Assembly (NCBI GenBank): GCA_028715415.1
Contig: JAQURX010000001.1
Span: 24,386 to 88,385 of the forward strand
Direction: 5' to 3'
DNA length: 64,000 bases
DNA from: Candidatus Omnitrophota bacterium
GTDB lineage: Bacteria; Omnitrophota; Gorgyraeia; Gygaellales; Profunditerraquicolaceae
Positions within the stretch are counted from its first letter, which is position 1, and each line of letters opens with the position of its first letter. Position numbers: made by a program. This document shows positions 3,001 to 9,000 of the stretch, in pieces.

Positions 3001-6000
3001 TGTTAACTACTTTTCAGGATACATTGGCGGTTTTTTACAGGATGAGGATATTAAAATACTATGACAATATCGATTATTATCGCCGTAAAAACATGGCAAA
3101 AGAATTTAGAAGAATGCGTCGCTAAATGCCTTGAGTTGGACTACCATGATTTTGAGATTGTTATCCTTCCGGATAGTTTCATAGATAATGATTTCTTAAA
3201 AAGAACTAAAATTCCAGTTAAAGTTGTTCCTACGGGGGTAGTTGGTCCGGGAGAAAAAAGAGATAGGGCTATTAATGAAGCTTCCGGAGAGATTTTTGCA
3301 TTTCTTGATGATGATGCTTATCCTGCAAAAGATTGGTTAAGAAAAGCGGTTAGGAATTTTGAAGATCCGCTTGTGGCTGCAGTTGGAGGGCCAGCAATTA
3401 CACCTAAGAACGATAGTTTTAGGCAGAAAGCTAGCGGGGCTATATTTGAGTCTTTTTTAGTCAGCGCTGGTTTTGTCTATAGGTATTTACCGGGGAAAAA
3501 ACAAGAAATTGAGGATTATCCTTCTTGTAATCTTTTTGTACGAAAATCAGTGATGCAGGAGCTGGGAGGGTTTAATACGAATTTCTGGCCCGGAGAAGAT
3601 ACAAAACTTTGTTTAGACATTGTAAAGAAATTAAAGAAAAAGATTATTTATGACCCTGAAGTGGTTGTCTGGCATCATCGTAGAAGATGGTTTGTCCCGC
3701 ATATTAAACAAGTATCAAATTATGCCTTGCACCGCGGTTATTTTGTAAAGAAATATCCTGAAACTTCCTTTAAGCCAGCCTATTTTATTCCTTCCTTATT
3801 CGTATTGCTTTTGTTTGTCGGAGGCTTAATTTCTTTGTTGTCAAAAGAGTTCAGGATTTTGTATTTAGCTGCTTTTTTTCTGTATTTGTTTTTAGTGTTT
3901 ATCTTTAGCTTTTCTAAAGACTTACGTTTGCTTCCTGCCGTATTTTTTGGTATAATATCCACTCATGTTGCCTACGGGGTTTATTTCCTTAAAGGGCTAA
4001 TTTCTATTAAACTTAAAGAAGAAAAAGTTTAATTTTGATTGATTTGGTTGTATAAAAAAAGCCCCAATCAATACATGGTAATTACTATCCTAAGAATATA
4101 ACTATGAAGATTATTATATCCTATCCGCCCTTAAGCAGCCAAAAAGGCTACCCAACTCTCGGTCAAAACAGGCAATTTCAATATTTCAAAGAGCCGACTT
4201 TTATTTATCCAATTGTACCTGCTCAGGCAGCTACTCTGTTAAAAAGAGCAGGGCATGAGGTAATTTGGAATGATTGTATTGCTCAAGGTTGGGAAGAGAG
4301 CCAGTTTTATGAGTTTATCAAGAAAGAAAATCCGGATTTAATCGCTTTTGAGACAAAAACTCCTGTTGTCAAAGAGCATTGGAAGATAATTAATAGCCTT
4401 AAGTCTCAAGTTTCAAGTGTCAAGATAGCATTGTTTGGGGATCATGTTACAGCTCTGCCAGAGGAATCATTTGAACATAGCCAAGTTGATTATGTTTTAA
4501 CTGGAGGAGATTACGATTTTCTTTTGCTTAATTTGTGCAATTATTTAGATGGGAAAAACAATGATTTGGAGCCGGGAATTTATTTTCGCGAGAACGGCCA
4601 GCTTAGAAATACTGGAAAATTTAGGCTTAATCATGATCTTGACTCTCTACCATTTATTGATCGTGAATTAACCAAGTGGCAGTTATACGCTTACAAAAAC
4701 GGGAATTACAAAAGAACACCAGGAACTTATATTATGTCCGGCAGGGACTGCTGGTGGGGGAAATGCACCTTTTGTTCCTGGGCTAATTTTTATCCTGAAT
4801 TCCGCGTTCGAAGCGTTGACAATGTCCTTGATGAAGTTGAGATGTTGGTTTTAGAGTATAGAGTAAAAGAAATAATGGATGATTCAGGATGTTTTCCTGC
4901 GGGAGAGTGGCTTAAGGATTTTTGCAAAGGGCTAATTTTGAGAAAGCTTAATAAAAAGATCTATTTTGATTGCAACATGCGTTTTGGAGCTCTGTCAAAT
5001 GAAGATTTCAGGTTGATGAAAAAAGCAAACTTTCGGCTTCTTTTGTTTGGGCTTGAATCAAGTAATCAGGATACTCTTGATAAAGTAAACAAAAATTTAA
5101 AAGCGGAAAGAATTGTTGAAGATTGCCGGAATGCAACACAAGCAGGTTTATTCCCGCATATAACCATAATGTTTGGTTATCCCTGGGAGTCTTATGAGGA
5201 CACTTTGAAAACTTTGAATCTCGGAAAATGGCTTTTAAAAAAAGGCTATGCTTATACAATGCAGGCTACTGTAGTTATTCCTTATCCGGGTACGGATCTT
5301 TATTCTGATTGCCTTAAGAAAGGCTTACTTAAGAGCTTAGATTGGAATTATTATGATATGAAACATCCCGTAATGCGAAGTAGTATTGAAGATAAGAGAA
5401 TCATGGAGTTGGTGCAAGAGATGTATAAAGTTTCATTTCAGCCCGAGTTTGTTTTAAGGAAAATCCTATCAATCCGTGATTTTGGTGATTTGGCATATTT
5501 TGCCCGGGCGGCAAAGAAAGTAGCCGGGCACGTCCTTGATTTTAGAAGGAATAAGGTAGATAGTGCTTAAATGAAATCAATAAATCGATACGAAGTTGAT
5601 GAAAAAAATCGTTTAATTATTAAGCGCGGCAGTAAGAAATTACTGGCACGAGGCCGATTTAATATAGATAGGAAGAATCAACTTAGCTATTTATTGAATG
5701 AGCCTGCTAGCTGGCGTGAGCTTAATAATTTACCTTCAAAGATTACTTTTGAAGGTAGATGGCAAGTTGATTCTAATCACGATTTAATATTTGAACTTAG
5801 TGAAACAAGCGGACGGTTAAAGCGGGATAACTTAGTTATAAAAGCAGAGATTGTTTCTGTAGATAGTAATCTTCTGGCTGTTGAAATTAAAAGTTATAAT
5901 GATAATGGATTATGTAGTGTGCAGGTTTTGGAGTTAAGCGGCATATGGCAGGCGGATGAGTATAACCGAATAAATTTTTGCATTGAGAGAAAATTTGTTC

Positions 6001-9000
6001 CCGATACGCTTTTGTTTAAAGGTGCTTGGCAAGTTAATAAGAATCAGCAGGTTGCTTATACTTACTAGAGAGTAGATTTAAAGAGAAAAACAAAGATAAA
6101 CAAGGTCCTGATTTTTAAAGGATTCTGGCAGATAGGCCTAAATGATAAACTTACTTATGTTTTTGAGCACAGCAGCGCTTCACGTTTTGATTTTCGTGCG
6201 CAGATAGAGAGCAATAATCTTTATTCCCAAAAGGGCGCAATTAAATATCGTTTGGGAGTCGGCATAAAAGAAGATAAGTCTTATCGTGAAAAGATAGTTT
6301 ATATTTTTGGTACTTGGAAATTCAGCCGTTCTTTAGGGCTATTGTTTCAGGTTGATTATGGAAAAGGGAAAATTAAAGAAATTGAGTTTGGCGCAGATTT
6401 ATCTTTTAGTGATAAAGATAAGATATCATTTAACCTTTTAAATGATCTTCATAAGCCTTTAGGAATTAGCCTTACTTTAAGCCGTAAATTCTTAAAAGAA
6501 AATGAAGCTGAGGTGTTTGTGCGGCTTGAGAAAAAACTAAATGATTTGGGAATTGAAGCTGGTTTAAGAGTACCGTTTTAATCAACTTTAAAGGGGAAAT
6601 CAATGGTTTGGAAATTAATCGGTGCAATTGCTGCGATTTTAACTACATTTTCTTTTGTCCCACAAATTGTTAAAGTGTTAAAGACTAAATCGGTAAAAGA
6701 TGTTAGCTTGATTATGTTATTGCAGTTTAGCTTGGGGGTTTCTTTGTGGGCTATTTATGGGGCATATTTAAGAGATTTGATTATCATCTTAGCCAATGTA
6801 ACCACATTTCTAACTTTGCTTGTACTACTTGTTCTTTATTACAAGTATAGAAGGAGCATAAAATGAAGAAAGCGTTTATTACGGGAATTGATGGGCAGGA
6901 TGGTTCATATTTAGCGGAGTTTTTATTAAAAAAAGATTATAAAGTTTATGGAATGGTAAGGAGAGTGGCTTTGGAAGATCCTGAGCATCAGCTTGGGCGG
7001 CTAAAGCATATCTTAAATAGGATAAAGCTATACCCTGCCTCTTTAGAAAGTTATGCTAGTATATTTAGCGTGATTGATAAGATTAAACCCGATGAGTGTT
7101 ATCATTTGGCAGCGCAGAGTTTTGTTAGTTATTCTTTTGAGGACGAATTTTCTACCATAAACACCAATATAAGCGGAACACACTATGTTCTTTCAGCTAT
7201 TAAAGAAAGAGTGCCAAAATGTAAATTTTATTTTGCAGCCTCAAGTGAGATGTTTGGAAAAGTAAGAGAGGTCCCGCAAAATGAAAATACACCATTTCAT
7301 CCGCGTTCTCCATATGGAATTTCAAAAGTAGCTGGTTTTGACCTAACAAGAAATTACCGTGAGGCGTATGGTTTATTTGCTTGCAATGGCATACTTTTTA
7401 ATCATGAATCTCCTCGCCGCGGGTTTGAGTTTGTTACTCGTAAGATTACAAATAGAGTAGCAGAAATTAAATTAGGCCTTGCAAAAGAATTAAGGTTAGG
7501 AAACTTAGAGGCAAAACGAGATTGGGGATTTTCAGGTGATTATGTAGAAGCGATGTGGATGATGCTTCAACAGGCAAAGCCCGATGATTATGTAATTGCA
7601 ACTGGGGAAACTCATTCTGTGAAAGAATTTGCAGAAATGGCTTTTAGGTTTGTTGGGCTTGATTGGAAAAAATATGTGGTTGCCGATAAAACTTTTTACC
7701 GGCCAGCGGAGGTTAACCTGCTAATTGGAGATTACAGTAAAGCCAAAAAAATACTAAAATGGAAACCCAAGGTAAAGTTTAATGAATTGGTTAAAATGAT
7801 GGTGGAAGAGGATTTAAAAAGGCTGCGAGGTAAATGTGTTTGTGTTTAAATATTCTATTTCTAAATAAATGACTGAAGTTTCGGTAATAGTGACTACTAA
7901 AAACGAAGAAGTAAATATTAAAGCCTGTTTGGAATCAATTAGAAGACAAGATTATCCAGCAGAAAAAATAGAGGTAATTGTTATAGATAATAATTCAACA
8001 GATAGAACGAAAGAATTATCTCTAGAGTATACAAATAATGTTTTTAACTATGGGCCTGAACGTTCTGCTCAGAGGAATTTTGGTGTTAAGAAAGCTAGTG
8101 GCAGGTATGTCCTTTATTTAGATGCTGACATGCAATTGTCTGAAGAAGTATTGAGTGAATGTTTCAATAAGTGTGAAAAAGAAGGTTTGATCGGTTTGTA
8201 TATCCCAGAAAAAATTATCGGGAAAGGTTTTTGGATTAAAGTAAGAAATTTTGAAAGAAGCTTTTATGACGCAACTTGTATTGATGCGGTGAGGTTTGTA
8301 AGAAAAGATAAATTCTTAGGAATCGGAGGTTTTGACGAAAGCCTGACTGGCCCTGAAGATTGGGATTTTGACAGGAGGATAAGGCAGGCGGGAGGAGTAA
8401 GTATAATAAAATCTCAAATTTATCATAATGAAGACGGTTTCAACTTAAAAGAATATATTTTAAAGAAATGTTACTATTCTCAGTGGTTTAATCTTTATAA
8501 ACAAAAGTGGGGGGAAAGCGACCCGGTAATAAAGAAACAACTTGGGATTTGGTATAGGTATGTTGGTGTTTTTACTGAAAATGGGAAATGGCTTAAGCTT
8601 GTCAGGCACGGTGTTTTAACTCTCGGTATGTTTTCCTTAAGGATTAGAATAGGAGTAATGTATTTGAGGGGTTCTTATAATAGGAATTGAAAGTAATATG
8701 AAAATTGCTGTTGTGCTGGATCAGTTGTCAAAGGGCGGCACTGCTAAGCTTGCTATAGAAGAAGTGCGTGAATTATCAAGGTTAGGCCATGATGCCGAGC
8801 TCTTGTTGCTTTTTGATAATCAAAAAGATATTTTTGGCGATATCCTCAAGGGGATTAAGGTTAGAAAAATATGGCATGAAATTCCTGCCATTTTCAGAAT
8901 TAACTTCAAGATTCCTTTCTTTTCGTTTTTCTCATTTTTCCATTTATCGGAAGTTTTAATCCTCCCATTTATTATAAAGAGAAAAGAATACGATTTTTTT

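Follow-up and report, generated by a model that had tools for sequence, protein, structure and literature searches.

A conserved gene is interrupted by an in-frame TAG in a 64,000-nucleotide stretch of DNA from a Candidatus Omnitrophota bacterium (GenBank assembly GCA_028715415.1, contig JAQURX010000001.1; hereafter 'the window', to which all positions refer). The gene occupies 5571..6581 on the forward strand, and the stop falls at its codon 166. The evidence makes it probable that a recent nonsense mutation, from GAG or CAG to TAG, truncates a conserved and uncharacterised beta-repeat protein of Omnitrophota, and that the remnant behind the stop has been mis-annotated as a second gene. An earlier reading of the sequence, which we call the first-pass annotation, had left open whether the gene is a recent nonsense pseudogene, contains a sequencing or assembly error, or undergoes programmed readthrough or suppression. 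We favour the first of these options.

An interrupted gene with intact orthologues

The region 5571..6581 forms one frame of 336 codons whose sole internal stop is the TAG at 6066..6068. This TAG is in frame with the ATG at 5571 and is followed by 170 open codons, up to the TAA at 6579..6581. At a GC content of about 35%, where about 7% of random codons are stops, we calculate by our own arithmetic that a run of 170 open codons has a chance of about 1e-5 to 1e-6. Translation also bears out the initial observation that the two open reading frames (ORFs) 5571..6068 and 6252..6581 share a frame, and that the interval 6069..6251 between them is free of stops.

The first-pass annotation had proposed that a single gene of about 336 amino acids (aa) is split here, and had suggested a search of the orthologues for an uninterrupted version. 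That comparison returned more than 100 uninterrupted proteins of about 336 aa, which are single proteins that align across the stop. In an alignment of 102 sequences, the column of the TAG is occupied by Glu in 85 of the 101 orthologues, and otherwise by D, Q, T, K, S, R, I or A. We also retrieved 17 orthologous genomic loci from an alignment of six closer family sequences, and the codons found at the site in these loci are GAA (7), GAG (3), CAA (3), CAG (2), ACA (1) and TCA (1). Since both GAG and CAG are used at the site by orthologues, the TAG is a single substitution away from codons in use. The gene is a single intact ORF in 16 of the 17 loci. No stop at the TAG column was found among the aligned orthologues or in the 17 loci, and none of them is arranged as two genes at this point. 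The first-pass annotation had named, as the arrangement that would speak against one gene, orthologues that end at the stop and are followed by an independent downstream gene. No orthologue has this arrangement, and the one-gene reading therefore stands.

The part of the gene behind the stop has not decayed. The mean identity to the orthologues rises from 0.437 ahead of the stop to 0.460 behind it, a typical difference that ranks 72nd of 102, and 33 of the 35 strongly conserved downstream columns are kept. In these comparisons of identity and of conserved columns, neither relaxed constraint nor an additional lesion was seen in the 170 codons after the TAG. Such an undecayed downstream part reflects either a very recent mutation, a sequence error or continued translation. 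If the mutation is recent, the 170 codons would for that reason still resemble intact coding sequence.

We propose that a single-base substitution changed GAG (Glu) or CAG (Gln) to TAG at codon 166 of the conserved gene. Ribosomes would stop at this codon and release a fragment of 165 residues, which is the only product expected if the TAG terminates translation. How much function such a fragment could retain is indicated by a shorter subfamily of about 250 aa, whose members are without the N-terminal ~88 residues only and in every case retain residues ~89-336. Most of the conserved core is thus missing from the 165-aa fragment. This strain would accordingly have an inactive gene, or at best a badly impaired one. 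Automatic annotation would then have made the remnant into a spurious ORF of 109 aa, starting from the first available TTG. The coordinates of the parts of the gene, together with those of the repeated motif described below, are given in Table 1.

Table 1. Parts of the interrupted gene and copies of the hairpin motif encoded in it
Feature	Window positions	Strand	Remarks
Whole interrupted gene	5571..6581	+	336 codons including the internal TAG; based on translation, full-length homologues and alignments
N-terminal ORF, 165 aa (GenBank MDD5431391.1 / PHO70_00165)	5571..6068	+	
Premature TAG, codon 166	6066..6068	+	Orthologue column Glu in 85/101
61 in-frame codons without ATG, GTG or TTG	6069..6251	+	Encode hairpin motif copy 4 and F182, G184, W186, Y196, F206, F208, K225
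C-terminal ORF, 109 aa, TTG start (GenBank MDD5431392.1 / PHO70_00170)	6252..6581	+	C-terminal remnant of the 5571..6581 gene
Hairpin motif copy 1	5748..5804	+	aa 60-78, FEGRWQVDSNHDLIFELSE
Hairpin motif copy 2	5934..5990	+	aa 122-140, LSGIWQADEYNRINFCIER
Hairpin motif copy 3, shortened by the TAG	6015..6068	+	aa 149-166, FKGAWQVNKNQQVAYTY followed by the stop
Hairpin motif copy 4	6114..6170	+	aa 182-200, FKGFWQIGLNDKLTYVFEH
Hairpin motif copy 5	6303..6362	+	aa 245-264, IFGTWKFSRSLGLLFQVDYG

In most respects the gene resembles a recent unitary pseudogene created by a single nonsense substitution. The in-frame stop is one base away from an orthologous sense codon, homology continues in the same frame through the stop, the second part is without a start of its own, and the annotation pipeline calls two ORFs. 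Unitary pseudogenes with a single nonsense codon are often mis-annotated in this way, as two adjacent hypothetical proteins. It differs in that no second lesion and no relaxed conservation is visible as yet, and the stop is the one mark by which it would be classed as a pseudogene. A gene disrupted by a nonsense codon is an already known and ordinary phenomenon.

Two further members of the family are also disrupted. In Omnitrophica bacterium GWA2_41_15 isolate Hainich-Omni-XXI (locus L017, 5980-6981), an in-frame TAA occurs at codon 120 of a gene that is otherwise intact. In P0114 (locus L020, 366-1338; JGI contig Ga0598294_0053385), the reading frame shifts near codon 189, beyond which the C-terminal part can be read in the +1 frame. 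Disrupted copies thus number about 3 in 120, with differing sites and lesions. We considered whether disrupted copies are enriched in this family and rejected the idea, since this number and the variety of sites and lesions are unremarkable. The three disruptions fit ordinary sporadic inactivation or metagenome noise and give no hint of a site-specific mechanism.

Authenticity of the TAG

It is possible, though we consider it unlikely, that the dominant cells carry an intact gene, and that the TAG stems from an error in sequencing or in the consensus, or from a minority allele taken up by the assemblers. The perfect preservation of the downstream part is what an intact gene would show. Moreover, only one sample holds this strain, and this sample is strain-heterogeneous, with a mosaic allele lying about 800 nucleotides (nt) upstream of the TAG in a second assembly.

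That second assembly, the Logan assembly of SRR22315506, nevertheless argues against an error. It yields the same 165-aa and 109-aa calls with the same TAG, and over window positions ~5250 to 16068 (10.8 kb), TAG included, the two DNA sequences are 100% identical. As two assemblers, that of the metagenome-assembled genome (MAG) and that of Logan, agree on the TAG, a pure assembly artefact is less likely. Of the error option in the first-pass annotation, the assembly half has thus lost ground, and it is a consensus error or minority allele that retains the low probability stated above. Substitution errors seldom survive into a short-read consensus, which we count against an error as well. In addition, an intact allele was sought by exact look-up of the seven proteins that a one-step reversion of the TAG would produce, and none of these occurs among 15 billion proteins. 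Exact look-ups of the products of flanking genes revealed no second sample with this strain, and exact DNA patterns around the stop revealed no close relative in genome and metagenome contigs beyond the Logan contig.

The mosaic allele itself belongs to the B12-binding radical S-adenosylmethionine (SAM) gene at 4104..5570. Over window positions 4750-5250, the Logan contig (L001, 1-520) differs from the window at about 140 of 500 nt. The encoded segment (aa 209-380) is about 70% identical, in frame and without stops. These differences point to a co-existing strain, or to a recombination breakpoint just upstream of the interrupted gene.

Termination or decoding at the TAG

As a second alternative, the TAG may be read as a sense codon, whether by a suppressor tRNA(CUA), by pyrrolysine-type machinery or by leaky near-cognate recognition. 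The 336-aa protein would then still be made, possibly at a reduced level. We regard such decoding as quite improbable, even though the downstream frame is intact and undecayed, as decoding would require. The identity of the residue is also favourable: both Gln and Glu are natural at the site, so an insertion of Gln would give a wild-type-like protein, and Gln insertion at UAG is the commonest near-cognate event in Escherichia coli.

Stop codon usage has a bearing on both sides. The first-pass annotation had described TAG as rare, with nearly all genes ending in TAA, which overstates the case. The stops of the 62 long ORFs listed for the window are TAA in 37, TGA in 17 and TAG in 8, and TAG is indeed the least used, a point in favour of decoding. 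However, besides the interrupted gene, TAG ends seven others among the ~55 genes of the window, with back-up stops or separate downstream genes. A second in-frame stop lies within 0-3 codons behind the TAG in four of these seven. Two of the TAG-ended genes precede an ORF in the same frame, but these are unrelated pairs (radical SAM with family 2 glycosyltransferase (GT2), and radical SAM with methyltransferase) in which the downstream gene has its own ATG 3-5 codons later, and same-frame neighbouring ORFs are equally frequent behind TAA and TGA. TAG as a normal terminator in this Omnitrophota genome is thereby confirmed.

Signals that could direct recoding were also sought. There are no tRNA genes within the 64-kb window. 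The 121 nt around and after the stop are less stable than shuffled sequences (z = +1.21), and no Rfam match was obtained across 5000..7500. No report of stop-codon reassignment or recoding in Omnitrophota emerged from a search of the literature. Furthermore, the residue at codon 166 is an ordinary variable surface position, unlike the catalytic sites at which pyrrolysine or selenocysteine occur. The absence of a stop from this column in every orthologue also argues against decoding.

Known systems of programmed UAG decoding, such as pyrrolysine in methylamine methyltransferases and suppressor-tRNA recoding in phages, do share with this gene an in-frame TAG inside an intact, conserved coding sequence. 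Such systems, however, possess a tRNA(CUA), and their in-frame TAG either is conserved from one orthologue to the next or turns up in many genes. In the present case, the stop is unique to one strain, TAG ends other genes, and the window contains neither a tRNA nor a signal. The programmed readthrough or suppression envisaged in the first-pass annotation thus finds no support in the window.

A related possibility is that the TAG is tolerated through partial readthrough, by a suppressor tRNA encoded elsewhere or by a near-cognate Gln-tRNA. Full-length protein would then be made in smaller quantity, and the nonsense codon would serve to attenuate or to switch on and off the expression of an accessory gene, one that lies in a surface-glycan modification island of very large size. 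The undecayed downstream part and the natural use of Gln at codon 166 are in keeping with this reading, but we consider it very improbable.

Several points weigh against the recent nonsense mutation that we prefer. The two assemblies were very probably made from one read set, so that their agreement is not independent biological evidence, and a systematic error or a near-50% polymorphism would be compatible with it. The complete lack of downstream decay is also the outcome expected of continued translation. The tRNA search spans the 64 kb of the window only, and its result is compatible with a suppressor tRNA elsewhere in the genome. Finally, there is no close relative, the closest homologue being 52% identical, and no second sample by which to date the mutation.

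Possible restart behind the TAG

If the 109-aa ORF were a gene in its own right, translation would have to begin again downstream of the TAG. From the TAG to 6252 there is no in-frame ATG, GTG or TTG, and the only start-like codons are ATA, CTG and ATT. The first canonical start is the TTG at 6252, which lies 61 codons past the TAG. A protein starting there would lose copy 4 of the hairpin motif and seven invariant or nearly invariant residues (Table 1). The pairing energy with the anti-Shine-Dalgarno sequence at 6252 is -2.6 kcal/mol, which is weaker than at 56% of the real starts and at 38% of the internal start-like codons in the window. This test does not discriminate, as Shine-Dalgarno signals are weak throughout the operon. 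The 109-aa ORF is most likely a by-product of gene calling, a remnant of the interrupted gene.

In a third alternative, which is scarcely credible, the gene has become two functional polypeptides that act in trans, namely the N-terminal module of 165 aa and a C-terminal module translated from a start of its own, an arrangement that the internal duplication of the protein would permit. In its favour, the halves are homologous (hhalign 93%), the stop lies three residues ahead of the second copy of the larger module, GenBank annotates two proteins, and the ~250-aa subfamily marks the N-terminal ~88 residues as dispensable. Against it, the start 61 codons on deletes conserved parts, its Shine-Dalgarno score is undistinguished, two separate genes are seen at this point in none of the orthologues, and the break falls inside a confidently modelled continuous domain.

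Repeat architecture and predicted structure

When read through the stop, the protein contains five copies of the hairpin motif [FLIVYW]-x-[GS]-x-[WF]-x, here in the form F/L-x-G/S-x-W/F-Q/K, at residues 60, 122, 149, 182 and 245. The first-pass annotation had recognised repeats of the FxGxWQ type, of which it saw at least three, and this is borne out by the five copies counted here. It had also placed the TAG inside repeat 2, which needs correction, as the TAG closes copy 3 of the motif (residues 149-166). On a larger scale, profiles of the family built from the parts before and after the stop can be aligned, with residues 14-112 matching 169-295 (hhalign probability 93%, E 4e-7) and residues 139-163 matching 172-196 (probability 84%). 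The protein is therefore internally duplicated.

An AlphaFold model (110 sequences) is all-beta, with a mean predicted local distance difference test (pLDDT) score of 81 and a predicted template modelling (pTM) score of 0.77. The confidence exceeds 85 over residues 1-210, drops over residues 211-310 and is poor for the last 25. Around residues 150-180 the pLDDT is about 91-92, which places the stop within a confidently modelled, continuous beta domain. The best structural matches are small beta-barrels of the calycin/lipocalin-like kind, namely the N-domain of NlpE (2z4h), TP0435 (4u3q), VtrC (5kev) and ToxS (8u2f), and each likeness covers one module of about 70 residues only. The whole model is without structural neighbours.

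A protein family of Omnitrophota

The read-through protein has 116 homologues with E values from 1e-116 to ~1e-36. Nearly all are 325-345 aa long and cover 98-100% of the query, and those with a named source are all from MAGs of Candidatus Omnitrophota/Omnitrophica. An exhaustive profile search extended the family to 486 cluster representatives at 50% identity. There was no match to the read-through protein in Pfam or NCBIfam, or among the sequences of the PDB. The protein in the window shares the invariant residues of the family, W153, F182, Y196, G229 and G247, as well as a C-terminal aromatic residue. Of 186 full-length members, 180 end in Phe or Trp, and the C-terminal motif G-x-R-[IV]-P-F/W resembles a beta-signal.

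This C-terminal aromatic signal prompted us to consider an outer-membrane beta-barrel. We rejected that candidate, as no member has an N-terminus resembling a signal peptide: a Kyte-Doolittle scan, with no dedicated signal-peptide predictor run, found neither such an N-terminus nor a transmembrane helix in any of the 186 members. The criterion for the signal peptide was a 10-residue window with a mean of at least 2.0 within the first 40 aa, and the value for the protein in the window is 0.03. Judging from these sequence features, we regard it as a beta-repeat protein that is soluble and cytoplasmic. The members of about 250 aa were also considered as further split genes, and this too was rejected, as the ORF upstream of one of them (P0108) is the end of an unrelated epimerase gene.

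Genomic neighbourhood

In the glycan clusters that hold the family gene, gene order is conserved in part. The upstream neighbour of the family gene is a B12-binding radical SAM gene in 7 of the 17 orthologous loci and a class-Ib (Trp/Tyr-type) aminoacyl-tRNA synthetase gene in 5 of them (L005, L006, L011, L014 and L018), where the family gene follows the synthetase directly. Immediately downstream, an 87-aa SemiSWEET/PQ-loop gene is present in 6 of the 17 loci, and GDP-mannose dehydratase and glycosyltransferase genes come next. In the window, a flippase gene, two GT2 genes and a radical SAM gene (1075..5570) lie between the synthetase (41-1054) and the family gene at 5571, which suggests that the genes at 1075..5570 are a cassette inserted between the two.

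The entire window (41-63948, forward strand) is a single co-directional array of about 55 genes. It includes nine paralogous B12-binding radical SAM genes, with starts at 4104, 9845, 13446, 17005, 50947, 53297, 55705, 58264 and 59702. These are interleaved with genes for glycosyltransferases of the GT2, GT4 and GT9 families, methyltransferases, a flippase, a GDP-mannose dehydratase and the SemiSWEET protein. The 64-kb array is an unusually large glycan-modification island.

Implications

As a stop-codon phenomenon, the interruption is of little consequence, and its practical outcome is a correction of the annotation, in which PHO70_00165 and PHO70_00170 should be joined into a single entry marked as an interrupted gene. 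The gene has a mild interest of its own, as it belongs to a sizeable family restricted to Omnitrophota, with a duplicated all-beta architecture and a near-universal C-terminal Phe or Trp. This family may be worth defining as a new domain family.

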